From sequence record NC_048194.1: 64,000 nt of DNA. One strand, 5' to 3'. The notes below the pieces were generated by a model. That model searched no databases. It was not told where the DNA came from and saw nothing but the letters and a program-made list of their open reading frames with translations. The translations under genes were made by a program, and so were the position numbers. How positions within the stretch are numbered: position 1 is the stretch's first letter; every line of letters starts with the position of its first letter. This document shows positions 38,950 to 53,888 of this stretch, one piece after another. This stretch comes from Escherichia phage vB_EcoM_WFH.

Positions 38950-39927
38950 TTAAAAATACTCCATATCGGTAATATCACGGAAGCACTTATACAAGGCAGA
39001 GCGCGGCACGTCAACTATGCCAAAGTTAAAGAATTTATATGTCAAATACTTGTTTCGATAATTCTCGCGATTCTCCCAAAGCATTTTTCTCTCTGCCATA
39101 GGCATTGAACCAGCGGAGACGCGGAAGGGAATCATTTCACCTTTCTCATCAACATATTTTGGATTGACAACCACAAATGATCCAAGGTATCCTTTTGCAA
39201 CTAAGCCTTCAGCCTCTTTCGAACGCTTAGTGCGACCCAACTCATCAATGAATGCTTCGTTGTTATTCTCCATCATCTCAACGAAGTCTATGATCAGTCC
39301 TTCTTCATCGGTCCACGGCTTGTCCTTCCACACATCACGTGACTTTGGCGTCGCGCGGCCATGCTTGTATTTGCCCGTCCAAGACTTGCCATACAAGCCT
39401 TCATAGCCAAGCTGGTCTGCTTCGATTTGCATCGCCGCGTACTGTTCCATATTTTCGATGTTTCGATATTCGAGAGCGCGAAGGAATGGGCGTCGACCAT
39501 GGTTGATGAGGTGCTGATTGACTTCAGCAACTCTAGCGCGATAGTTTGCATAACGCTTTTCAAAAGGCAAATCAGGGTCGCTGAAGTCATCAAACACCCA
39601 CCATGTAAAGTTAGTGATTGCATCAGTGTTCATGCATGCAGTATAGGCCTGTTGCATGACGTTCTTGTCATTCGGATTACCGTCAATTAGCTCTCCATCA
39701 AGTCCGTGAATCAATTCACCCAAGAATAGGAACTCTTTTTTGATTTGAATGTTGCGCAGTGCCATGCCGGATGTGCCCATTGGCAAGTTGTCATACGCCA
39801 TCGCGCGTATTCCATCGACCTTGAAGGATAATCCGCAAGGCAGCGGCACATCTTCGCCGCGCTCGATGATTTGTTTACGCTGGCAACCTTTCATTGGTTT
39901 TAATGCTTTGATTTCTCCTGCCATCAC
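38950..39927 (-). CDS. ATP-dependent DNA ligase
   Basis: Motif I KVDGIR, motif III DGEL, motif IV VFDDF, motif V EGLI. Confidence 0.8.
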   Translation of the reverse strand: MMAGEIKALKPMKGCQRKQIIERGEDVPLPCGLSFKVDGIRAMAYDNLPMGTSGMALRNIQIKKEFLFLGELIHGLDGELIDGNPNDKNVMQQAYTACMNTDAITNFTWWVFDDFSDPDLPFEKRYANYRARVAEVNQHLINHGRRPFLRALEYRNIENMEQYAAMQIEADQLGYEGLYGKSWTGKYKHGRATPKSRDVWKDKPWTDEEGLIIDFVEMMENNNEAFIDELGRTKRSKEAEGLVAKGYLGSFVVVNPKYVDEKGEMIPFRVSAGSMPMAERKMLWENRENYRNKYLTYKFFNFGIVDVPRSALYKCFRDITDMEYF

Positions 39928-40517
39928 TCAAACTCCTTATTCATCACTTGTTCCAGCGCATAGGCATAAGCCTGATCAGTCGATTTAATAAACGTTCCGT
40001 TGTACATCACACCTTTACGGTCCTTGATGTCTTCATAGGCGGCTTGAGCGCAATCAGACAGTCGAAGTCCATAATCATGCGCTACGCCGGAAAGATAATC
40101 GACTGCGGCCATGATAGTGACATCAATATCCATGCTTTGATTTTTAGCAATGGCGTCACCAAGCCGTCCGAGAGTCTTCGCCAAGCGAAGGATAAAGGAA
40201 TGAGGGTGAGCGCCTTTGTCAGCGCAACCGCCTCCGTTGATGTCTTCGATTTTTGCACCATTTTGCGCGGCAAGAATAGTTAACACAACAAGGCAATCAC
40301 CGATGTCGTCCTTGATTGCGGCTTGCAAATCACAAATGGCCTGCTCTGTATATCCGATTTCAGGGTCAAAGAACACAAGGTCATGGAGTTGATCCACGTG
40401 GTCGGTCAACTCCCCAAACTCGCTAATAAGCTTCGGGTATTGGTCTTTAAGGCCGCAACCTTTGATGATGTTACGGTCAGAAGCCCATTGGCGAATGTTT
40501 GCATAAATCTGGTTCAT
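39924..40517 (-). CDS. mazG: MazG-like nucleoside triphosphate pyrophosphohydrolase
   Basis: All-alpha NTP-PPase pattern: EFGELTDHV and DDIGDCLVVLTILAAQNGAKIED. Confidence 0.65.
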   Translation of the reverse strand: MNQIYANIRQWASDRNIIKGCGLKDQYPKLISEFGELTDHVDQLHDLVFFDPEIGYTEQAICDLQAAIKDDIGDCLVVLTILAAQNGAKIEDINGGGCADKGAHPHSFILRLAKTLGRLGDAIAKNQSMDIDVTIMAAVDYLSGVAHDYGLRLSDCAQAAYEDIKDRKGVMYNGTFIKSTDQAYAYALEQVMNKEFE

Positions 40518-44425: not shown

Positions 44426-44844
44426 GACAATTCCTCTAAATACTTGATGATGTGATGAATAGTGCCCTTCACGATTATCTCACGTTGAACGTCTGCAATA
44501 TTATAACGCTTTAATTCAATCGAAGGGTGGACTAAATAAAACATCTTCTCAGAATCGACTTTAAGCAAAACAAATGATGGGTATTTCCAATCATTCCACG
44601 AAGAAAGAAAGCTGCACTGACCTTTCTCAAATGCATTTCTGAAAGGTGCAGTGGTGGCCCTTGCAGGCCACGATTCAAAGAACTTCATTTCAAGCCAAAA
44701 GCCGCGCCCTTTCCGGTTGGTGCCGATTACGTCCGGCACACCATCACCCGTCATTGATTCGATTCTTTGAAGCTTCAAGATTGATTCTGAATGCTTCTTC
44801 AAAGGCACGAATATGTATTTCTGTTCACGGTTATTTGTTGCCAT
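44422..44844 (-). CDS. VRR-NUC domain nuclease
   Basis: PD-(D/E)xK signature GVPDVIG ... FWLEMK; usual partner of SNF2 helicases in phages. Confidence 0.7.
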   Translation of the reverse strand: MATNNREQKYIFVPLKKHSESILKLQRIESMTGDGVPDVIGTNRKGRGFWLEMKFFESWPARATTAPFRNAFEKGQCSFLSSWNDWKYPSFVLLKVDSEKMFYLVHPSIELKRYNIADVQREIIVKGTIHHIIKYLEELS

Positions 44845-47728
44845 CTGGATACACCTGTTTGATCACGTCGACGATAAACATGTCAATACCTTCAAGCTTG
44901 CGGCCTTTCATCAGAAAGAATGCGCCGTTCCCGACGTTCTCTGCAATGTACTTACCGTATTTCTGGAACTTCTCTGGGCGAATCCTGAAGCGCATTGGCG
45001 AGTCGGTCGAATCGTCCTTGCACATAAGGTCAATGAACTGAGTCTCAAGCTTGTTTCCATACTGGTCAAACTCTGCGTAGCGGCCATCAGCTTGAAGACC
45101 CTTTTTAAGTTTGCCGTGCTTTGTATAAATGCCGCGCTCAAGACGTTTACGGATGCGTGTCGCTTCGTTCTCGTCAGCCAGCACTTTCTTGGTCAACTTG
45201 CCGATTACTATTGCACGCTCGTCATCGCCGACTTCCTTCATCTGGCGTATTGAAGCACCGGAAGTAACGCCAATCAGATAGGGGTCATTATACGCCCAGC
45301 CAAACTTGGTGTGCATCTCTGTAAGGTCGCCGTATTTGACTTCAGCATTGGCCAATGCATCCTTTTGTTTTTGCGTTAAGGTTCCGGCTTCACGCGCTTC
45401 GATGTACTTCATCGCCTTCACCATTCCGTACCCTTTGGCGTTCATTATGCCGCCGATTAGCTTTCCGTTAGCGATGGTCCAGTTCATTGAAGAGTGATCA
45501 GGGTCGATTGGCACATAATCCACGCCTTCCTTTGCAAGTTCACGTAATATCGCAATCGTCTGGTCTTCGTCCTTAGCAGCGCGTAAGCAAGCAGCGGCAA
45601 ATTCCAACGGGTAGTGTCGTTTAAGCCACAAGGTCCAGTAAGTCACGACCGCGTATGACACGGAGTGTGACTTGTTAAAGCCCCATGACCCGAACGTCGC
45701 CATCGCCTGCCAAAGCTTTCTTGCATCCGCTTCCGGTACGCCGTTATTTATTGCGCCTGCAACGAAGTCTTCGCCAAGCTTGTTAAAGTATTCCTCACCC
45801 TTACGACCTGACATCGCCTTACGCACAGCTGACGTTTTCGCCCAGTCGAATGAACCAATCTCTTTAACCACGGCCATGATTTGCTCTTGGTAAAGAAACA
45901 CGCCATAAGTCTCTTTTAAGTACGGCTCAAGCTGCGGCACGTCGTACTCAATCGGCGCACGTCCTGCCGCGCGTTCAATGTATTTCTGGGCCATACCGGA
46001 CGACAACGGGCCAGGTCGGCCAAGTGCTGTCAGGTTATCGATTTTGTTAAAGTTATCAACGTGCACAAAGTTGGTCACTGAGCGTACAGCGTCGCCTTCA
46101 AACTGGAAGATGCCTGACATCTTGTTTTCGTTAAGGATGTCAAGGACGCTTTGGTCATCAAGCTTGATTCCGTACAGCGTTTCAGCATCTATCACGCCAG
46201 TATCAGAAATGATTCCGAGGGTGCGAAGACCCAATGCATCAAGCTTCAAAAGGTTAAGGTATTCGCTGTCAGGCTTATCAATTTGTGCAATCCCTTCCGC
46301 CGTTACCGTACAGTAATCAGAGATTGGGTCATTACAAACGATGATTCCCGCTGCGTGAACGCCAGTGTGGGAAGGGTGAATCTCAAGGTCACCCATGCAT
46401 CGCGCGGCATCGGGATATTTAGCCACAAACTCTTGGCCCGTGGTCGTTGTTGCAAAGGTGTCCTCCAGGCCGTGGCCATAACGGGCGTCACCGGATGAGT
46501 ATTCAAGCAATGCGTTTTTAATGTTGGCCGTTTCGTGATATCCAATGTTGAATTTCTTACCAACCTGAGCCATTACTGAGTTGGCCTTAAGCGTGTTGAT
46601 GTTGCCAAGTTTTGCAACGTTCATTTCGCCGTATTTTTCTTTAAGGTAATCAAAAACCATATAGCGTTTGGTATCCTCAAAGTCAATATCAATATCAGGA
46701 AGGTCTGCGCGGCTTACGTCAATGAATCGGGCAAACAGTAGCTTATACGGGATTGGGTCAACCTCCGTGATGCCGAGGCAATAACAAACCAGTGAACCAG
46801 CCGATGAGCCGCGAGCGGGTCCGACGAGCATTTTTGTTTTTGCGAATCGTACAAGGTCCGCTACCACCAGAAAGTATGAGTCGAAATCTTTCAGCTGAAT
46901 CTGGTGAATCTCTTCGTTGAATCGGTCCTCATATTCCTGAGTCCATTCTTTGATGTGACCTGCCTTAAGGCGGTACTCCATCCCCTCACGAGCAAGCTTT
47001 ACCATGTCACCAGCAAGGTGGATAATCGGTGCCTTGCGCAGCTTCAGGTCAAGCCCAACGATTCCATTTGCAATATCAACCGCATTGGCCGTTGCTTGAT
47101 TCAACTCGTCTTCGGTCAGGATTCCTTTAAGCTGTTTGCGCAAGTCTTCCGCGTCAACGATGCAGTGCGGCTTAACCGTGTCTCGAACTTCCCATGCATA
47201 AGCAAAGTCAACGTGCTCAGGTGAAGGCATGTGGTTGTATCCGGTTAAAACCAGCGGCCTTCCGTTGCTGCGGTGAGCCAATACCTGGCGCTTGGCCAAA
47301 AGGAACGATGATGGGTTGACGTCTATATAATCATAGTCCTCTGGCCGCAGCAGCTCCACGGCCCCGCCACAGAATTTAACGACGCCATCGAGCGCCCCGA
47401 ACTCTGCACGGGTCAGTCCGCCGCGCTGTGTTGCAAGCGTGGTCGCGTTGTAAAAGGATTTCAGGTCAAGCGCCAATATCCAAGCCTTCGGTTTGAATCC
47501 CTTTTTCGGGTCCGCATCAGGGTCAATGATTGGAATCTCCATACCGAACATAGGCTTGATATCATTCTTCTGACATTCCTTTTCCCATCGAACGTGACCC
47601 CATGTATTGTTATCAACTAATGCCGCGACTTCGCAGCCCAACTCTTTGAGCCGTGCTATAATTTCAGGATGCCGTCCATATACTTCTTTGAACGTGTAAC
47701 CGCTGCGAACTCTCAATTGTGGAAACAT
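44831..47728 (-). CDS. dnaE: DNA polymerase III alpha-type (DnaE-like) replicase
   Basis: N-terminal PHP domain; polymerase signature GPARGSSAGSLVCYCLGITEVDP; 965 aa. Confidence 0.9.
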   Translation of the reverse strand: MFPQLRVRSGYTFKEVYGRHPEIIARLKELGCEVAALVDNNTWGHVRWEKECQKNDIKPMFGMEIPIIDPDADPKKGFKPKAWILALDLKSFYNATTLATQRGGLTRAEFGALDGVVKFCGGAVELLRPEDYDYIDVNPSSFLLAKRQVLAHRSNGRPLVLTGYNHMPSPEHVDFAYAWEVRDTVKPHCIVDAEDLRKQLKGILTEDELNQATANAVDIANGIVGLDLKLRKAPIIHLAGDMVKLAREGMEYRLKAGHIKEWTQEYEDRFNEEIHQIQLKDFDSYFLVVADLVRFAKTKMLVGPARGSSAGSLVCYCLGITEVDPIPYKLLFARFIDVSRADLPDIDIDFEDTKRYMVFDYLKEKYGEMNVAKLGNINTLKANSVMAQVGKKFNIGYHETANIKNALLEYSSGDARYGHGLEDTFATTTTGQEFVAKYPDAARCMGDLEIHPSHTGVHAAGIIVCNDPISDYCTVTAEGIAQIDKPDSEYLNLLKLDALGLRTLGIISDTGVIDAETLYGIKLDDQSVLDILNENKMSGIFQFEGDAVRSVTNFVHVDNFNKIDNLTALGRPGPLSSGMAQKYIERAAGRAPIEYDVPQLEPYLKETYGVFLYQEQIMAVVKEIGSFDWAKTSAVRKAMSGRKGEEYFNKLGEDFVAGAINNGVPEADARKLWQAMATFGSWGFNKSHSVSYAVVTYWTLWLKRHYPLEFAAACLRAAKDEDQTIAILRELAKEGVDYVPIDPDHSSMNWTIANGKLIGGIMNAKGYGMVKAMKYIEAREAGTLTQKQKDALANAEVKYGDLTEMHTKFGWAYNDPYLIGVTSGASIRQMKEVGDDERAIVIGKLTKKVLADENEATRIRKRLERGIYTKHGKLKKGLQADGRYAEFDQYGNKLETQFIDLMCKDDSTDSPMRFRIRPEKFQKYGKYIAENVGNGAFFLMKGRKLEGIDMFIVDVIKQVYPDGNK

Positions 47729-48324: not shown

Positions 48325-48876
48325 TTATACAGTGTACGGAGTACCGTCTTGATTCAACCGCACGATGAACTTAAGGTCGACACCAATGATTTCACGCGTA
48401 TCAAAGATCACATAGTTGTAACGACGCTGACCAGCAATGTTTGGGTTGGTGTGAGAGTCGGTCACAACTTCCTGCGCAACCTGAATGCCTTCTTCTTTAA
48501 AGAACTTGCGCCATTCAGCAAGTTCAGCGGCAGTCACGTGCATACCAAGATGGCTAACCTGATTGTCGTGCGCATCGATGTATTCGATGTTTTCGTGAAT
48601 CCAGTTGCAACCTTTTGTATAGTCAAGAATTTCAAGCTCAAGAGGCTTACCAGCTCCGCCATCGGTGCCGTTGCCAGCCTGATAGTTGAAGCGCAAGTCA
48701 GCTTCGTTGGTGCAATCGCCGCGCTGACCCTTAAAGACATCAGCTTCAAATACGCGACCAGTAGCAACAACGTGATCATGGAACCATTCTGTCAGGCCGA
48801 TTTTAGCCAGGAAATTCTGTGCGCGCTGAGCACCTGGAATTGACAGGGCGATTTGTTCAATTTTAAAATGTGGCAT
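48325..48876 (-). CDS. VOC / glyoxalase-fold protein (tentative)
   Basis: N-terminal FKIEQIALSIPGAQRAQNFLAKIGL and second-half HLGMHV pattern. Confidence 0.35.
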   Translation of the reverse strand: MPHFKIEQIALSIPGAQRAQNFLAKIGLTEWFHDHVVATGRVFEADVFKGQRGDCTNEADLRFNYQAGNGTDGGAGKPLELEILDYTKGCNWIHENIEYIDAHDNQVSHLGMHVTAAELAEWRKFFKEEGIQVAQEVVTDSHTNPNIAGQRRYNYVIFDTREIIGVDLKFIVRLNQDGTPYTV

Positions 48877-48966: not shown

Positions 48967-49650
48967 TTATTTACCAAATGGAATATCAGTACCAGACATA
49001 AAGCGCCATGCGCCCGTAATTAAGATATGGCGAATGAAGTCAGCAATTACTTGCGGCTCAGTCTCCAATCCATTCATCAGCGCCTTTTTCTGGTATTCAG
49101 CAGCATACTCAGGAGTCCAGCCGCGAGTCGCGCAAACAGCATCTTCAATCTGTTTGGACATGCCAGTACCACGTAGCTTGTTAGGACTAATAGAGAATAC
49201 CGTGATCCCGTATTTAGGCGTAAGCTCGTGAGCCATCTGCTTGCTAATCATGAGCGCAGCAGCCTTGGAAGCATTATAACACAAGCTGGACGTCATAGGA
49301 ATATGCGCAGCGTTGGAAACGATGTTGATCACAAAACCTTTGTTGTCAATAAGACTTTTCAGCGCGGCCTGAGTCGTGTTGACGAAAGAGAAGGCGTTGG
49401 TGTGCATAACGCGATTGAACTCTTCGTAGTTAACATCTTCGAACCAGTTGTTGGAGTTGACGCCAGCGCAGTTGATCAAGCCTTCTACGTCGTATTGAGA
49501 GAGAAGCTCTTTCATCTGTTTCGCGTTACGGATGTCATAGCCGTTCTCCAAATCAATACCGACAACTTCATGACCGTAAGCGCCAAGGGTGTCAAAAATG
49601 GATTTACCAAGACCGGAATTGCAGCCAGTTACAACAATTACTTTTTTCAT
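48967..49650 (-). CDS. Short-chain dehydrogenase/reductase (SDR)
   Basis: Cofactor motif VTGCNSGLGKS, NCAG, catalytic Ser ... YNASK. Confidence 0.8.
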   Translation of the reverse strand: MKKVIVVTGCNSGLGKSIFDTLGAYGHEVVGIDLENGYDIRNAKQMKELLSQYDVEGLINCAGVNSNNWFEDVNYEEFNRVMHTNAFSFVNTTQAALKSLIDNKGFVINIVSNAAHIPMTSSLCYNASKAAALMISKQMAHELTPKYGITVFSISPNKLRGTGMSKQIEDAVCATRGWTPEYAAEYQKKALMNGLETEPQVIADFIRHILITGAWRFMSGTDIPFGK

Positions 49651-49715: not shown

Positions 49716-50588
49716 CTATTTATTGAAATTAATATTATGGGTGTTGACAAGACGTTCACACATGGCGCTGTAAACACCATCATCGTGTATTGAGTCTTCG
49801 TGCTTCAGGCCGCTGATTGCGAAGCGTGTAAGCTTGACAATCTTAAGCTCGAACAGATGCCACATGTGGTAGTCTTCCGGCGTTTTCAACGTCACGCCAT
49901 TAGGGAAAAGCACCTGCATAACCTGACCTACCATCACAGCGTTATCGCCATAGACAGCGTTGCGCTCACGGAAGGTTGCTGCCATCGCATCAAGAATATC
50001 GGCGGCAGTTGCCGGAGATTGTTCAACTTCCACAGCCTTAGTCTCTTCTTGCCCTGTTGCACTTGGATCAATTGCTAATTGTTGCACCACTTCACCTGCC
50101 TTGCAAAGATTAAATGTAAAAGCGATTTTATTTTGAGCAACGGAATTATAATACAATGCTTCATCTTGCATCCGCGCGAGTACGTCTTGTCGGTCGTCGA
50201 ATACATTGATGATTCGATAATCGCCGTGCCGCAATGCGTGCGACAGCCATGCAGATTTCATAATAGTTGATGGACGTTTGTCGCCATAGTCTCTCATCTT
50301 GATTGTAAATTCATCAAAAGGGAAAACATTGTCCAGACGTTCAAAAGTCACTTGTCTGTATTTTTCTGGCCTTGCAGTCCAATATTCAACCGCCTCACCG
50401 CGAAGAGATGCCGACTCTACTGCTGATGCAATGTGAGGATAGAACTGATCATAACCAATACCGCTGTGATAATCATCATAGTCTGACAACGGACCTGCCA
50501 CCTTGATGCGGTCTAAGCGCCAACGGTCATCAAACAGCGTTCCGTCAAGGTCGAATACGTTTAAGATTTCGCTGTTTTTAATGCTCAT
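49716..50588 (-). CDS. HAD-superfamily phosphatase domain fused to an uncharacterised C-terminal domain
   Basis: Motif I FDLDGTL, motif II WTARP, later Lys and FDDRQD; C-terminal about 140 aa unassigned. Confidence 0.6.
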   Translation of the reverse strand: MSIKNSEILNVFDLDGTLFDDRWRLDRIKVAGPLSDYDDYHSGIGYDQFYPHIASAVESASLRGEAVEYWTARPEKYRQVTFERLDNVFPFDEFTIKMRDYGDKRPSTIMKSAWLSHALRHGDYRIINVFDDRQDVLARMQDEALYYNSVAQNKIAFTFNLCKAGEVVQQLAIDPSATGQEETKAVEVEQSPATAADILDAMAATFRERNAVYGDNAVMVGQVMQVLFPNGVTLKTPEDYHMWHLFELKIVKLTRFAISGLKHEDSIHDDGVYSAMCERLVNTHNINFNK

Positions 50589-51388
50589 CCTTTTGATACT
50601 CCATCTTTAGCAACTGGATTGTTGGTGATTGGCATCGCACTCCAAAACTGGATGCGCAACTCTTCTTGCTGTGCCGTGGTATCCATCCAATCACGATACC
50701 AAGGGCAATGGGCTTTACCGTGACGAGGAAATGCGCACTTACCCATACCAATGCATTGCGGCTGCAGTAATGGATTCGCCCAAGGGTGCACCTTGAGGAC
50801 TTCCGCAACCATTGCGCGGAATACTTCTTGATACTCTCCTTGCGTGCGCGTGCACAAGCGGTTTGACGCCATCTGCTGCAGCGTGCGCAAGTTGAACTTT
50901 GCCATGATATGCGTTTGCATATTAGAAGGCAACACGGCACGTGCATCTTGAATCTCTGCGCCAGCCGCGCGAAGCTCTTGATACAAAGCGTCGATAGTCG
51001 CCATCGCATCATCCCACTTCTCTGCCAGTTCAGCTGCCTTCTCGTCATGGCGAGTCCATCCCTTTGGATCATCCTCTGGGTAAGTGAATTTAGCAGGACG
51101 AATCGCATCAAATGCAGACGACTCCTGAGCGCGGCTGGTGCGTTCTTGATATGCGCCTGTGCGTGTGCGTACCATCTGATGGGTCATGTTCTTTGATACA
51201 GCTGTGATATCAAAGATATAGTCCACAAAGTCAAAAGGCGACTTGATTGTATCAAGCATGTAGCGCCAATGCTCTTGCTTCTCTGATTCCGTCATCTCAG
51301 AGACAGGCTTACCAGTCATGCGCGTGTTCTTTGTTTCCAGCAAAAGGTCAAGTGCATCTTGGGTGTATCGAATTAATTCAACTTTCAT
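50585..51388 (-). CDS. ThyX-family (flavin-dependent thymidylate synthase-like) protein with divergent active-site motif and Cys-rich C-terminal extension
   Basis: ThyX-like N-terminus MKVELIRYT; HQMVRTRTGAYQERTSR where canonical ThyX has RHR-x7-S; C-terminal CIGMGKCAFPRHGKAHC. Confidence 0.6.
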   Translation of the reverse strand: MKVELIRYTQDALDLLLETKNTRMTGKPVSEMTESEKQEHWRYMLDTIKSPFDFVDYIFDITAVSKNMTHQMVRTRTGAYQERTSRAQESSAFDAIRPAKFTYPEDDPKGWTRHDEKAAELAEKWDDAMATIDALYQELRAAGAEIQDARAVLPSNMQTHIMAKFNLRTLQQMASNRLCTRTQGEYQEVFRAMVAEVLKVHPWANPLLQPQCIGMGKCAFPRHGKAHCPWYRDWMDTTAQQEELRIQFWSAMPITNNPVAKDGVSKG

Positions 51389-51401: not shown

Positions 51402-51848
51402 TTAACGGTAATTCACTAGTTGCTGATCACCAGAGAAGGTGCAATGATAAACGAATTGTGCGTTATAAAGCAACTGAAAACTTTTCTTTGGTTCATTATT
51501 AGAACTCATTGATGTAAAGATTTCTGCACCAGAACGGTTTTCACCAATCAGATTGATAAAGCCGCCAGTTGAACGAGGTTGAACGAAAGTGAAACGTTGC
51601 ATCCACGGAGTCCGGTTGACACCTTTTCCGGTGAATCCTTGAATCTGAATATTCAGACCTTCTTGCTCATTCACACCGATGTAAGTGGTAATCTTCGCAC
51701 CAGTCGTTGCTGCGGTCTTACCGTCCATCGCTTCGCAATCGTAAACAGCGATTGAATCGGAAGTACGGATGGCGGCTTCAGTCGCTTCCATATACATGGT
51801 GCCGAGAATAGCAGTTGCGGCAAGCGCGATTCCAGTGATTCGTTTCAT
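51402..51848 (-). CDS. Secreted protein of unknown function
   Basis: N-terminal signal peptide MKRITGIALAATAILGTMYMEA; 148 aa. Confidence 0.5.
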   Translation of the reverse strand: MKRITGIALAATAILGTMYMEATEAAIRTSDSIAVYDCEAMDGKTAATTGAKITTYIGVNEQEGLNIQIQGFTGKGVNRTPWMQRFTFVQPRSTGGFINLIGENRSGAEIFTSMSSNNEPKKSFQLLYNAQFVYHCTFSGDQQLVNYR

Positions 51849-51913: not shown

Positions 51914-52909
51914 TTATTTATTAGCAATATAAGCAAATTTTTGATAGTTATTTGCTTTGATGAGTTTTTCGACTTCAACAAGGTCATGAGCGACGTCATC
52001 AAGCAAGATATTGCGCCAGGTCGCGAATCGACCGACACTAAACACGTTTAAATCCATAGTCAGCTGCAGGAGTAGGGCGTGTCGCAAGTCTTTCGGAATG
52101 TCGACAATCTTGCCATATTTCTGGTCGACCTTTTCAACTTCTTCAAGAGCAATGTCACTCCATGAAAGGCCAAAGGCCGTCAACACTTCGTCGACTTCTG
52201 CGCGCAGCTTCATGTCACGGTAACGAGTGATGCCGCCTGCGGCTTCAACTGCAGCTTCACTCACGCTGACCAAAGGAATTGTTTCAATGATAAGCGTGTC
52301 ACCAGTAATTGATGCGCGGTAAGTTCTGACGGAGTAGTCAGGGAAGTAAATTGTCTGATACAAATCACACTTACGTTTAATCTTAAAGCGGTAAACGCGA
52401 ATGTTTGCTTTATCAAATGAGAAATCAAGCTTTTGATCAATTCCAGCAAGCTTCATCATGACTGGCAGCGGCGACGTGTTGATGATTGGCGTCTCGCTAT
52501 AGCCGCAAAGAGTATCAACCGGAGTATTAAAGAATATGCGGTCACCCAGTTTGTCGACAAGCTGATCATAAAAGTCATCAGGCGCAATATAACGCGTTGC
52601 AGTCTTAAGCTTCATGATTGAACGGCTGCCAAATTGATTGGTGACCTTCATGGAATACATATTGGCAAGGTTGATTGGGCAATGGTCGTGATAGTAGTTG
52701 CCGCGAAAATACACAGCCTTGTCAACTGTCACGGCCTTAAAAGGGATTCCGGTAATACGGCTTACTTCTTCGCCGCGAAAGCGTAGCAGCGCCTTGTGCT
52801 GTTGCGCTCGTTCCCCTGCTTCGTACACAATAGAGTTCGGGAAGTGACACGCGGTGATAAGTCCTGCCAATCCGCCGCCGATAATCATTACAGGTTGTTT
52901 CATGTTCAT
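51914..52909 (-). CDS. FAD/NAD(P)-binding Rossmann-fold flavoprotein (UDP-galactopyranose-mutase-like or GidA/TrmFO-like, unresolved)
   Basis: N-terminal IIGGGLAGL with acidic residue about 20 aa later; C-terminal GRFATWRN resembles a mutase-type motif. Confidence 0.55.
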   Translation of the reverse strand: MNMKQPVMIIGGGLAGLITACHFPNSIVYEAGERAQQHKALLRFRGEEVSRITGIPFKAVTVDKAVYFRGNYYHDHCPINLANMYSMKVTNQFGSRSIMKLKTATRYIAPDDFYDQLVDKLGDRIFFNTPVDTLCGYSETPIINTSPLPVMMKLAGIDQKLDFSFDKANIRVYRFKIKRKCDLYQTIYFPDYSVRTYRASITGDTLIIETIPLVSVSEAAVEAAGGITRYRDMKLRAEVDEVLTAFGLSWSDIALEEVEKVDQKYGKIVDIPKDLRHALLLQLTMDLNVFSVGRFATWRNILLDDVAHDLVEVEKLIKANNYQKFAYIANK

Positions 52910-53042
52910 TTGTCCTTTGTGGGTGATATGAGAAGTATAATAGCTAAATTATTTTACAGCAACAAGTCATTTTATTTAGTACAGATGAAAAAAAGACCCA
53001 CAACAAGTGTGGGTCAATTACCGCTGCATAACCGTCCTAAGG

Positions 53043-53888
53043 TTATTCCGCTTGATCACCGTCTTCGGCATCTTCGTTGGGTTCAACATCGACAAACTCG
53101 ATGTGGCCCATCTCTTCCAGCTTGCTCAGGTAGGAGCGAACGGAAGCGCCAAACAGTTGATCTTTAACTTTTTCGCCCAGCTCATCGATAGACTGCGCCA
53201 CGCCAACTTCGCCTTCTTTGATCGCCGCCAGAACGCGTCCACGGGTGGAATGCTCTTGCGGCTGGCTCAGGCCATTGCCAGTGTAGATGAAGTGAGTAGC
53301 TTTTGCACGACGTTGACCGTTTGCCTTTTTAGCGGCCTTACGTTCTGCGATGGCTTTGCGACGTTCTTCAGCTTCTTTCTTACGCTGTTCTTTCTGTTGT
53401 TCTGCAGCTTCTTTCGCCGCAATCTTAGCAGCTTCACGCTCTGCCTTGCGTTTCGCTTTAGCTTCTTCTTTGGCCTTCTCTTTTTCGGCCTTCGCTGCAG
53501 CACGGGCTTGATCACGCTCTGCTTTCTTAGCAGCAGCTTGTTCAGCTTTCAGGCGCTTGGCTTCTTCTTTAGCCTTTGCCTTTTCGATTTCTTTTGCTGC
53601 TTTAGCGGCTTCACGCTCTGCTTTCTTAGCAGCAGCCTTTTCTGCACGCTCTTTAGCTTTCTTAGCTGCTTCTTCAGCACGCTTCTGAGCCTTCTCATCA
53701 GCAGCCTGCTTGCGTTTCAGGGCAGCTTCTTCACGCTTGGCTTGTTTTTCCTGCTCACGCTTCTGGCGTTTTTCTTCGGCTTCTTTCTTTTTAGCCAGAC
53801 GTTTTTCTTCAGCCACGCGACGGCGTTCTGCTGCAGCTGCTTGCTTTTCTTCTTTAGATAATACTTTGATTGCTTCGGCCATATTCAC
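53043..53888 (-). CDS. ER/K-rich single-alpha-helix protein with C-terminal winged-helix-like domain
   Basis: About 170 aa of Lys/Glu/Ala/Arg repeats then a globular C-terminus (RVLAAIKEGEVGVAQSIDELGEKV ... YLSKLEEMGHIEF). Confidence 0.6.
   Translation of the reverse strand: MNMAEAIKVLSKEEKQAAAAERRRVAEEKRLAKKKEAEEKRQKREQEKQAKREEAALKRKQAADEKAQKRAEEAAKKAKERAEKAAAKKAEREAAKAAKEIEKAKAKEEAKRLKAEQAAAKKAERDQARAAAKAEKEKAKEEAKAKRKAEREAAKIAAKEAAEQQKEQRKKEAEERRKAIAERKAAKKANGQRRAKATHFIYTGNGLSQPQEHSTRGRVLAAIKEGEVGVAQSIDELGEKVKDQLFGASVRSYLSKLEEMGHIEFVDVEPNEDAEDGDQAE

Follow-up and report, generated by a model that had tools for sequence, protein, structure and literature searches.

A gene on the minus strand of a Wifcevirus phage genome encodes a protein of the ThyX fold, and its residue pattern and gene neighbourhood make it the best candidate for the first step towards the sugar-decorated thymine found in related phage DNA. 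Our tentative proposal is that the enzyme opens a pathway of thymidine hypermodification instead of simply making dTMP. The gene lies in a window that comprises the whole 64,000-nucleotide stretch of Escherichia phage vB_EcoM_WFH (NC_048194.1) analysed here, and its relevant parts are as follows:

50585..51388, minus strand: gene for a ThyX-fold flavoprotein of a non-canonical clade (267 amino acids; Pfam Thy1)
51131..51172, minus strand: motif VRTRTGAYQERTSR, residues 73-86, aligned to T. maritima F77-R90 (phmmer, PDB 3n0b/1kq4)
51128-51130, minus strand: codon of Ala87, directly after the motif, replacing T. maritima Y91
50852..50854, minus strand: codon of Cys179 in the core segment NRLCTRTQGEYQ, aligned to T. 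maritima D176
50588..50779, minus strand: C-terminal extension, residues 204-267 (64 residues), with C212, C218, C228 and a conserved tail NNPVAKDGxS
50753-55, 50735-37 and 50705-07, minus strand: codons of C212, C218 and C228, respectively, in the C-terminal extension

A ThyX fold with altered active-site residues

The open reading frame starts with ATG and, as read from the sequence, has an AGGA ribosome-binding site 9 nt 5' of the start; a 100% identical protein is encoded by Shigella phage CWP003. The first-pass annotation had called the product ThyX-like, and both profile and structure comparisons confirm that the gene is a real gene of this fold. Pfam Thy1 (PF02511) matches residues 5-203 with E=2.9e-30 and 105.9 bits (gathering cutoff 24.8), covering profile positions 2-191 of 191. 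An AF2 model of the protein (pLDDT 88) has T. maritima ThyX (1O27) as its best Foldseek match in the PDB (E=2.6e-10, TM 0.75, ~207 residues), and the top 50 PDB matches all belong to the ThyX family, namely ThyX and its paralog PolB. Against the NCBIfam thyX equivalog TIGR02170 the protein scores 81.8 bits, below the cutoff of 87.9, and P0253, a relative with canonical motifs, scores 156.

Alignment by phmmer against the PDB paired QMVRTRTGAYQERTSRA with T. maritima QWFRHRIASYNELSGRY, placing R74-T75-R76 opposite R78-H79-R80 in the segment F77-R90, which contains R78-H79-R80 and S88-G89-R90. The earlier observation that RTR replaces RHR, with Thr in place of His, is thereby upheld, and a mis-registration of the histidine is ruled out by the agreement of phmmer, MAFFT and the Pfam profile. 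None of 120 homologs, with identity down to 53%, departs from RTR. Relative to the T. maritima enzyme, H53 is replaced by Ile48, H79 by Thr75, S88 by Thr84 and Y91 by Ala87, with Ile48, Thr75 and Ala87 invariant within the close family; further replacements are H59 to Phe, S83 to Ala and H178 to Arg. The ThyX signature RHR-x7-S (Myllykallio 2002, in the form quoted in PMC2826268), followed by xRY, here reads R-T-R-x7-T-S-R-A, so that both arginines of RxR and the later arginine are retained and the signature His, Ser and Tyr are changed (Ser to Thr, Tyr to Ala). Ile48, Thr84 and Ala87, along with a fourth invariant cysteine (C179), had been overlooked in the first-pass annotation.

Y91 and S88 are said to be critical and strictly conserved in canonical ThyX; H53 of the T. 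maritima enzyme stacks on the folate, and mutation of Y91 slows flavin oxidation ~1000-fold (PMC11940539). The RHR histidine has been described as a ligand of the FAD phosphate/ribityl (PMC6514825), and the earlier placement of the His-to-Thr change in a substrate-phosphate-binding motif must be given up. The arginines for binding and activation of dUMP are all present. T. maritima Q75, R78, R80, R90 and R147 align with Q71, R74, R76, R86 and R150, and N163, R165, R174, Q180 and E182 with N166, R168, R177, Q183 and E185, N163 and R165 being FAD-site residues. These retained dUMP/FAD-site residues are invariant or nearly so: the residues that bind and polarise dUMP (Q71, R74, R76, R86, R150 and R177) show no change in 121 sequences and hardly any in 150 distant representatives. 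At the position of the RHR histidine, Thr, Gln, Ser or Asn is common in a large clade of ThyX proteins encoded mostly on viral contigs, and RTR alone is therefore no argument for new chemistry.

A four-cysteine site shared by core and extension

The first-pass annotation had also noted about 70 extra C-terminal residues, where we count 64, with a C-x4-C-x9-C cluster that might bind a metal. The three cysteines and the second interval are as described; the first interval is five residues, giving C212-x5-C218-x9-C228. The proposed metal site is strengthened by the finding that these three cysteines are invariant and co-occur with C179 of the core, all four being invariant in close-family alignments. 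Of the 129 nearest cluster representatives, 74 carry all four cysteines (~57%), 52 carry none and only 3 are mixed. C179 is located in the active-site helix; its T. maritima counterpart by alignment, D176, lies between R174 and H178. The four cysteines thus behave like a metal site, putatively for either Zn or a [4Fe-4S] cluster.

The AF2 model has pLDDT 93-95 at residues 200-250, and the surface of the extension displays conserved basic and aromatic residues, e.g., R222, R232, W234 and W249. The extension alone gave no significant match in the PDB, and the alignment to solved ThyX structures ends by profile position ~200 of 256. We found no description of a four-cysteine metal site in solved ThyX structures or in the literature searched, and literature searches on metal or Fe-S binding by ThyX likewise gave nothing relevant. 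Compared with canonical ThyX (T. maritima TM0449, 1O26/1O27, EC 2.1.1.148), with which it has the fold and the nucleotide-binding residues in common, the phage protein differs by an extension missing from every solved ThyX, by the change of D176 to a cysteine that joins the three of the extension, and by a gene that always stands beside that of a second flavoprotein. The Thy1 of T. thermophilus (6J61) also has a C-terminal addition and gives the longest Foldseek alignment (246 columns), but its sequence alignment ends at about query residue 200 and the rmsd is 8.2 Å, and its extra domain shows no sign of homology to the extension or of metal binding.

PolB, the UMP/dUMP C5-methylase of polyoxin synthesis (PDB 4P5A/4P5B), has the same fold and is among the Foldseek matches; as a neofunctionalised ThyX paralog, it sets a precedent for an enzyme of this family that has left housekeeping dTMP synthesis (PMC5954106). 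The phage protein is not closely related to PolB in sequence, its phmmer match to 4p5a (E=0.25) being weaker than that to T. maritima ThyX. PolB also lacks the four-cysteine extension, the homolog profile aligning to it only up to position ~199, and it belongs to bacterial secondary metabolism, whereas the protein described here is from a phage.

ThyX sequences with canonical motifs (GHHS..EH, RHR, SQRY) also carry the same four cysteines, and the metal site is thus compatible with a normal-looking ThyX. RTR and the four-cysteine site are independent traits, both widespread in the large clade of mostly viral contigs, and neither is unique to this gene. We had considered the four-cysteine ThyX to occur also as a cellular protein but dropped this claim, because the 214-kb contig encoding such a protein with canonical motifs looks phage-like.

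A constant flavoprotein partner in a replication module

The following neighbouring genes, all on the minus strand, bear on the function of the ThyX-like protein:

51914..52909, minus strand: 331-aa flavoprotein with an N-terminal GxGxxG and an amine-oxidase/UDP-galactopyranose-mutase (UGM)-type fold (AF2, Foldseek)
49716..50588, minus strand: 290-aa protein with an N-terminal PNKP-type HAD phosphatase (HAD_PNKP E=5.4e-8; phrog_4889) and a C-terminal helical domain
48967..49650, minus strand: 227-aa short-chain dehydrogenase/reductase (SDR; adh_short E=1e-31; homolog in 39/98 related loci)
48325..48876, minus strand: 183-aa protein, glyoxalase/VOC family according to the annotation of phage Mansfield, which cites IPR029068
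47728-48270, minus strand: epsilon-like 3'-5' exonuclease (RNase_T E=1e-21)
44831-47728, minus strand: Pol III alpha-type DNA polymerase (DNA_pol3_alpha E=3e-63)
39924..40517, minus strand: 197-aa MazG-like nucleotide pyrophosphohydrolase, so annotated in Bas99 and Mansfield (weak Pfam MazG match, E=0.011)

The 331-aa flavoprotein has no match in Pfam or NCBIfam and belongs to phrog_4828, a family without assigned function. Its AF2 model (pLDDT 87) matches MAO-B and UGM in Foldseek with E~1e-9, and it contains a single dinucleotide-binding motif. In all 89 metagenomic viral loci that have both genes, the flavoprotein gene lies immediately upstream of the ThyX-like gene on the same strand, and the genes farther upstream differ among the loci. 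The pairing recurs in a Rhizobium phage of another family, 207 kb in size, and in a set of relatives without the four cysteines (P0149-like) the flavoprotein partner is present in 69 of 75 loci. A small oxidoreductase of mycobacteriophage Onyinye was considered as a further homolog; hhalign covers only its N-terminal GxGxxG region and we do not claim homology. Among 26 long homologs of the ThyX-like protein, the added sequence consists of inteins, a GIY-YIG-like endonuclease (by motif) or unassigned N-terminal regions; fusions with the flavoprotein or with a HAD domain were looked for and not seen, and none of the added sequence matches the flavoprotein profile.

The start codon of the HAD phosphatase gene overlaps the stop codon of the ThyX-like gene (ATGA at 50585-50588), and a homolog is found in 71 of 98 related viral loci, usually downstream of the ThyX-like gene. 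Sequence searches against the PDB gave no match for either the flavoprotein or the HAD protein, and the C-terminal domain of the latter is matched by Pfam DUF6378 alone, below threshold and in the F8 ortholog. The 183-aa protein has a sub-threshold Glyoxalase_4 match (E=0.09) and homologs in 23 of 98 related loci, and the MazG-like protein is a possible editor of the dNTP pool. The Pol III alpha and exonuclease genes lie downstream of the ThyX-like gene in the same direction of transcription. The homolog of Rhizobium phage TM30 has dUTPase and ribonucleotide reductase genes in its vicinity, as is typical of a dNTP-supply region.

The Pbunavirus protein annotated as "FAD-dependent thymidylate synthase" (F8 gp059, 14-1 gp60, JG024 gp60) is the ortholog, 49% identical over the full length, that shares RTR, the four cysteines and the conserved C-terminal tail; it is longer (~305 aa), with an insert within the cysteine region. 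F8 and 14-1 carry the same cassette in the same gene order (flavoprotein, ThyX-like protein, HAD phosphatase, exonuclease, Pol III alpha), to which the Wifcevirus cassette adds the SDR gene, the VOC-like gene and a 148-aa gene. Modified thymidine is known from Pbunavirus only.

A possible entry step to hypermodified thymidine

In the virion DNA of Pbunavirus F8 and 14-1, about a quarter of T is replaced by nucleosides of 362 and 390 Da, as shown by LC-MS, in a TG context; the 2025 preprint on END nucleases that reports these sugar- or polyol-modified thymidines proposes no biosynthetic genes and states that Pbunaviruses lack the genes of the known 5-hmdU hypermodification route (PMC12191111). 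The change of chemistry suggested in the first-pass annotation is plausible in this light, not because of RTR, which is common in the clade, but because the H53-Y91 couple is lost, the score falls below the thyX equivalog cutoff, the pairing with a second flavoprotein is constant and Pbunavirus has hypermodified thymidine without known genes.

Fold, residue pattern, co-occurrence of the cysteines and gene linkage are shown by the analysis, whereas the metal, the product and the tie to DNA modification are inferred. In the mechanism that we envisage, the protein is a functional flavoenzyme: the scaffold for binding FAD and for binding and polarising dUMP is retained, and the one-carbon unit would most likely still be added to C5 of dUMP via a flavin-N5 adduct. 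Of the canonical ThyX residues, His79 and the His53-Tyr91 couple are absent, and a Zn or [4Fe-4S] site would be assembled from one cysteine of the active-site helix and three of the extension. The gene is probably co-transcribed with that of the amine-oxidase/UGM-fold flavoprotein and translationally coupled to the HAD phosphatase gene. The product would be a C5-CH2-X deoxyuridylate, most simply 5-hydroxymethyl-dUMP if water traps the exocyclic-methylene intermediate, and would then be elaborated to sugar- or polyol-thymidine as in Pbunavirus DNA. The role proposed here is that of the ThyA-family dUMP hydroxymethylases of phages with hypermodified thymidine (ViI, M6, SP10, PhiW-14; Lee et al. 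2018, 2021), which place a functionalised one-carbon unit on C5 of dUMP at the start of their pathways; these pathways also use a later-acting FAD oxidoreductase, PaMx11 gp47, a precedent for such an enzyme in thymidine hypermodification (PMC8989533). The folds and the cofactor chemistry are unrelated, however, ThyA using a Cys nucleophile and ThyX a flavin N5 adduct, and the companion genes 5-HMUDK and aGPT-Pplase are not annotated in Wifcevirus genomes. Neither Mansfield nor Bas99 has an annotated ThyA-type hydroxymethylase, TET/JBP oxygenase, 5-HMUDK kinase or aGPT-Pplase, and no glycosyltransferase or methyltransferase is listed in annotated Wifcevirus genomes.

Wifceviruses resist restriction by a mechanism that is not established, an indirect sign of modified DNA for which a thymidine-hypermodification cassette would also account. 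A TG-only modification was considered as the cause of the BASEL restriction pattern and rejected: the EcoP1I site AGACC has no TG, in agreement with it, but the EcoRI and EcoRV sites lack TG and are still resisted, so the context of a Wifcevirus modification, if any, must differ from that in F8.

Several observations weigh against the hypermodification role. The modified base is reported in Pbunavirus and in no Wifcevirus, and the Pbunavirus restriction data suggest a TG-specific step, probably post-replication; as an enzyme acting on nucleotides cannot give TG specificity, at least one further DNA-acting enzyme would be needed. No phage dNMP kinase for an unusual dNMP is annotated in Mansfield or Bas99, and the constant pairing could reflect an inherited replication module instead of a common pathway. 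The modifications of F8 and 14-1 differ although their ThyX-like proteins are 94% identical, and the ThyX-like enzyme thus does not set the final structure.

A strong rival, though in our view a less likely one, is an ordinary flavin-dependent thymidylate synthase that makes dTMP from dUMP and boosts thymidylate for fast phage replication, with RTR, Ile48 and Ala87 as tolerated lineage-specific variants and the four cysteines as a structural zinc site pinning the extension to the core. About three quarters of Pbunavirus T is unmodified, so that a genuine dTMP supply is also of use to the phage, a point against the hypermodification role. The dUTPase and ribonucleotide reductase neighbours of the TM30 homolog, like the location of the gene in a replication module near Pol III alpha, speak for this reading and, in the case of TM30, against hypermodification. 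The strong Thy1 match, the ThyX fold, the conservation of all arginines that bind and activate dUMP, the four cysteines of canonical-motif ThyX and the public annotations, uniformly "thymidylate synthase", agree with it too. Inteins usually occupy conserved sites of nucleotide-metabolism and replication enzymes, and they interrupt several homologs shortly before the RxR motif. Yet such an enzyme would have to function without both His53 and Tyr91, the latter mutation alone costing the T. maritima enzyme the ~1000-fold in flavin oxidation cited above, and would score under the NCBI equivalog cutoff; nor does a housekeeping enzyme need a dedicated second flavoprotein of the kind that always adjoins this gene. 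E. coli and P. aeruginosa already possess ThyA, and Pbunavirus thymidine hypermodification would be left without an entry enzyme.

An improbable reading is a two-component thymidylate synthase that still makes dTMP but, having lost the His53/Tyr91 gate, requires the adjacent flavoprotein, either for reducing equivalents relayed through a Cys4 [4Fe-4S] cluster or for the one-carbon unit, e.g., an aldehyde or iminium from an amine-oxidase-type reaction. The constancy of the pairing and the absence of the folate-stacking His53 are consistent with this arrangement. One turn separates C179 from R177 and R181, the counterparts in the alignment of T. maritima R174 and H178, residues that we take to be ligands of dUMP and FAD, respectively, and the cysteine site would therefore be near the flavin pocket. 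ThyX is moreover able to accept a formaldehyde carbon via an N5-carbinolamine (PDB 7ndw, 7ndz). However, the four cysteines are missing from ~40% of the nearest relatives, which still have the flavoprotein neighbour, so an Fe-S relay cannot be the general explanation, and the lack of any fusion of the two proteins among the 26 long homologs and the single dinucleotide-binding motif of the flavoprotein also count against it.

A long shot is that the ThyX-like protein and its UGM-fold partner attach a sugar C1 directly to C5 of dUMP by flavin-N5 covalent chemistry. An aldose or aldose phosphate would replace methylene-folate as carbon donor, with the coupled HAD phosphatase later removing the phosphate; electrons would come from a [4Fe-4S] cluster at the four cysteines, and the product would be a C-linked polyol or sugar deoxyuridine. 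The masses agree: dU minus H plus C5H11O4 gives 362.3, matching the F8 nucleoside, and a C6H11O5 substituent on dU gives 390.3, matching that of 14-1. If true, the ThyX family would gain a new reaction class, and a new way of making hypermodified DNA would be known.

It is highly improbable that the enzyme acts on a polynucleotide, modifying for example TG-context uracil or thymine within phage DNA, while the four cysteines hold a [4Fe-4S] cluster of the type seen in DNA enzymes. Such clusters are common among DNA-processing enzymes, and the conserved basic and aromatic surface of the extension would suit this role. The TG-specific Pbunavirus modification (PMC12191111) does require a DNA-level enzyme, but the active site of ThyX lies buried where three subunits meet and holds the 5'-phosphate of a mononucleotide with arginines, all of which are conserved here; Pfam detected no nucleic-acid-binding domain, and the cysteine-less relatives occupy the same gene context. 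A catalytically dead ThyX fold with a structural or regulatory role, such as dUMP/FAD binding or inhibition of a host enzyme, is barely credible, for although it has lost residues regarded as critical and strictly conserved in canonical ThyX, ~80 positions do not vary among 70 sequences with identity down to 58%, including all nucleotide-binding Arg, Gln and Glu, as expected of purifying selection on an active site.

If it does open a hypermodification pathway, the enzyme described here would be the first of the ThyX family linked to DNA hypermodification, and together with its constant flavoprotein partner it provides concrete candidates for the thymidine-modification pathway of Pbunavirus. 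Both "strictly conserved" residues, Tyr91 and His53, are dispensable in a large natural clade, and as ThyX is an antibacterial drug target, such natural variation of the active site is of practical interest.

The ThyX-like gene and its active-site residues

Between positions 49000 and 53000 the window shares 99.9% identity with Shigella phage CWP003 and Wifcevirus WFH, and 94-99% with other E. coli Wifcevirus phages. The ThyX-like ORF starts at an ATG preceded, 9 nt upstream, by an AGGA ribosome-binding site, and its stop codon (TGA) overlaps the start codon (ATG) of the HAD-phosphatase gene in an ATGA at 50585-50588, which suggests that the two genes are translationally coupled.

Minus-strand gene order in the window, positions 1-10
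1. Minus strand, SF1 helicase
2. 53043-53888, minus strand, Lys/Glu/Ala-rich low-complexity protein of 281 aa (phrog_4765, unknown function)
3. 51914-52909, minus strand, flavoprotein of 331 aa (no Pfam/NCBIfam family; phrog_4828, unknown function)
4. 51402-51848, minus strand, protein of 148 aa (no family match)
5. 50585..51388, minus strand, ThyX-like protein of 267 aa
6. 49716-50588, minus strand, HAD (PNKP-type) phosphatase with an extra C-terminal domain
7. 48967-49650, minus strand, SDR
8. 48325-48876, minus strand, VOC/glyoxalase-like protein of 183 aa
9. Minus strand, epsilon-like exonuclease
10. Minus strand, Pol III alpha

Residues 5-203 of the ThyX-like protein match Pfam Thy1 (E=2.9e-30), and its PHROGs assignment is phrog_85 (thymidylate synthase). 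Its AlphaFold2 model, built from 70 sequences, has a mean pLDDT of 88 (93-95 across residues 200-250); the best 50 PDB matches are all ThyX-family proteins (T. maritima 1O27, TM 0.75), and the matches span mostly ~206-211 alignment columns.

In a phmmer search against the PDB, the segment 'QMVRTRTGAYQERTSRA' aligns with 'QWFRHRIASYNELSGRY' of T. maritima ThyX, and R74-T75-R76 therefore corresponds to R78-H79-R80. The first-pass annotation, which had read RTR in place of RHR, was thus in the correct register, and RTR is invariant across 120 homologs, down to 53% identity. Its view of the RHR histidine as a ligand of the substrate phosphate does not hold, as the histidine is a ligand of the cofactor: the motif is described as forming hydrogen bonds with the AMP phosphate, the ribityl and the FMN phosphate of FAD (PMC6514825).

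Residues of T. maritima ThyX and their ThyX-like counterparts
Retained: Q75 (Q71), R78 (R74), R80 (R76), E86 (E82; Gln in most relatives), R90 (R86), R147 (R150), N163 (N166), R165 (R168), R174 (R177), Q180 (Q183), E182 (E185)
Changed: H53 (Ile48), H59 (Phe54), H79 (Thr75), S83 (Ala79), S88 (Thr84), Y91 (Ala87), D176 (Cys179), H178 (Arg181)

Tyr91 and Ser88 of ThyX have been termed critical and strictly conserved; His53, stacked on the folate pterin, forms a hydrogen bond with Tyr91 by which the reduced flavin is held in an 'off' position, and mutation of Y91 slows flavin oxidation ~1000-fold (PMC11940539). The loss of both His53 and Tyr91 is a stronger sign of an altered mechanism than RTR, and the score of the protein against the NCBI thyX equivalog model (81.8 bits, under the 87.9 cutoff) agrees with it. 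The earlier argument for altered chemistry from RTR alone was unsound, although its conclusion is plausible on these better grounds.

A C-terminal extension and four cysteines

The C-terminal extension described at first pass is present but comprises 64 residues rather than about 70, and its three cysteines are spaced C212-x5-C218-x9-C228, the first interval being one residue longer than the C-x4-C reported. All three are invariant among the 120 homologs (down to 53% identity), and so is a fourth cysteine, C179, in the core segment NRLCTRTQGEYQ. None of the solved ThyX structures aligns past position ~200 of the 256-position profile of the Cys-bearing family, and the extension alone gave no significant match in the PDB.

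phmmer, run exhaustively against 1.84 billion cluster representatives, returned 1591 matches at E<=1e-3, the best 150 of which were aligned and the 129 spanning the cysteine region counted. All four cysteines occur in 74/129, none in 52/129 and a mixture in 3/129; the four behave as a single unit. Judged by this co-occurrence and invariance, the possible metal site proposed earlier is plausible; we found no description of a metal site in ThyX in the literature searched. At the middle position of RxR the four-cysteine group has H in 29, T in 21, Q in 15 and S in 4 sequences, and 43 of the 52 cysteine-free sequences have T; RTR and the predicted Cys4 metal site are therefore independent of each other, and each is common.

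A fully canonical appearance (GHHS..EH, RHR, SQRY) was seen in 11 four-cysteine sequences. A search seeded with one canonical-looking example recovered thousands of relatives, and among the 120 relatives listed R-[LIVM]-C...C...C...C is found in 95 and RHR...Y in at least 114. One canonical-motif Cys4 ThyX gene sits on a phage-like 214-kb contig, and many members of the non-canonical group (Ile/Leu/Val at 48, no Tyr at 87) were recovered on IMG/VR viral contigs of 30-80 kb. Several homologs (P0157, P0166, P0263) are interrupted by inteins around Thy1 profile position 65-71, just ahead of RxR, and another (P0159) carries, by motif, an N-terminal GIY-YIG-like endonuclease region.

Gene neighbourhood and the flavoprotein partner

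The 331-aa protein, a compact two-domain FAD enzyme, has a GxGxxG motif at its N-terminus. Structural comparison of its model (pLDDT 87) gave matches at E~1e-9 to monoamine oxidases, UDP-galactopyranose mutases and protoporphyrinogen oxidase. Pbunavirus JG024, F8 and 14-1 share the core gene order of the window but lack the SDR, VOC and 148-aa genes. Across 98 IMG/VR loci, collected with two distant ThyX-like seeds (one Cys4/RHR, one Cys-free/RTR), homologs were found of the flavoprotein in 90, Pol III alpha in 78, the exonuclease in 77, the HAD phosphatase in 71, the SDR in 39 and the VOC-like protein in 23. ORF clustering gave 89 loci with both flavoprotein and ThyX-like gene, and in every one of the 89 the flavoprotein gene is the next one upstream, on the same strand, with a gap of 373 bp at the median and often of 0-20 bp; the genes beyond it vary. 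In the eight loci without the flavoprotein, <4 kb of sequence lies upstream. A 207-kb phage of a different family, Rhizobium phage RHph_TM30, has the trio as well, with dUTPase and RNR genes nearby and the partner annotated as 'polysaccharide deacetylase'. A search among 26 long homologs for a fusion of flavoprotein and ThyX-like protein found none. The constant pairing could result from one replication module being inherited with its gene order intact.

The 148-aa ORF between the two genes has a hydrophobic, signal-peptide-like N-terminus and a homolog in 0/98 of the related viral loci. Opposite the 281-aa protein, a plus-strand ORF of 284 aa (53007-53861) is almost certainly an artefact of repetitive composition. 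The C-terminal helical domain of the HAD phosphatase (~100 aa) has no family match, apart from a DUF6378 hit below threshold in the ortholog of F8. Mycobacterium phage Onyinye carries a similar gene set (small GxGxxG oxidoreductase, 'polynucleotide kinase', split Pol III alpha, Cys4 ThyX-like protein with RSR, pyrophosphatase), although the alignment of its oxidoreductase with the family of the 331-aa protein extended no further than the N-terminal motif.

A possible entry point to thymidine hypermodification

Virion DNA of Pbunavirus F8 and 14-1 resists enzymes with TG in their sites, and about a quarter of its thymidines are replaced by new nucleosides (362 and 390 Da), as shown in a 2025 preprint whose authors name no biosynthetic genes and point out that such phages would escape prediction from gene content (PMC12191111). 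The later literature searched added nothing on their biosynthesis. Hypermodification of thymidine by known routes begins with 5-hmdUMP, the product of a ThyA homolog, and may also use a DNA-acting FAD oxidoreductase; in the ThyX reaction an exocyclic methylene is formed and then reduced by the flavin (PMC8989533). Annotations of Wifcevirus genomes lack a ThyA-type hydroxymethylase, hmU kinase, glycosyltransferase, methyltransferase and dNMP kinase, and the only small-molecule enzymes annotated are the ThyX-like cassette and a MazG-like pyrophosphatase.

We tentatively propose, at somewhat below even confidence, that the ThyX-like enzyme is the entry point of thymidine hypermodification, the simplest account using all of the evidence. 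The non-canonical ThyX would still place a carbon on C5 of dUMP; reduction of the intermediate to methyl would then not take place, or not be its only fate, and the product would be 5-hydroxymethyl-dUMP or a related C5-CH2-X nucleotide. The same pathway would employ the flavoprotein and HAD phosphatase and, in Wifceviruses, also the SDR and VOC enzymes. By mass arithmetic, 5-hmdU (258.2) plus erythritol (122.1) minus water gives 362.3 and 5-hmdU plus a pentose (150.1) minus water 390.3; a 1-deoxypentitol C-linked to dU likewise comes to 362.3.

Between F8 and 14-1, whose thymidine modifications differ, identity is 93.8% for the ThyX-like protein, 97.3% for the flavoprotein and 93-99% for flanking replication genes, 80% for the HAD protein (F8, L102 7772-8836; 14-1, L103 7940-8956) and 78-89% for the small ORFs 058-062. 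ORF070, which has no family match, is 56% identical (L102 15894-17090, 398 aa; L103 15997-17301, 434 aa) within a region otherwise 92-100% identical. The later, structure-determining modification steps probably lie among these diverged genes (HAD, ORFs 058-062, ORF070).

The TG specificity of the Pbunavirus modification calls for an enzyme acting on DNA, and a TG-only modification would not account for the EcoRI and EcoRV resistance of Wifceviruses. Bas99, a Wifcevirus in the BASEL collection, has 38 EcoRI, 8 EcoRV, 92 EcoCFT_II and 89 EcoP1_I sites (S2 table); we counted 15 EcoRI and 7 EcoRV sites within the window. Restriction-site counts in the window depart from those expected from its base composition (HindIII AAGCTT, 56 observed and 18 expected; XbaI TCTAGA, 3 and 18; GATC, 105 and 247), the TA dinucleotide is at 0.68 of expectation, and 26.6% of all T on both strands precede G.

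A serious alternative, though held somewhat less probable, is an ordinary ThyX acting as a plain dTMP synthase with structural zinc; in its favour are the same four cysteines in canonical-motif ThyX sequences and the position of the TM30 homolog amid dNTP-supply genes. That the protein is part of a two-component dTMP synthase we regard as improbable, and to a DNA-acting enzyme or a dead enzyme we give small remaining probabilities.

The ThyX-like observation is confirmed and extended, and the protein makes two questions directly testable: how Pbunaviruses synthesise their modified thymidines and how Wifceviruses resist restriction.
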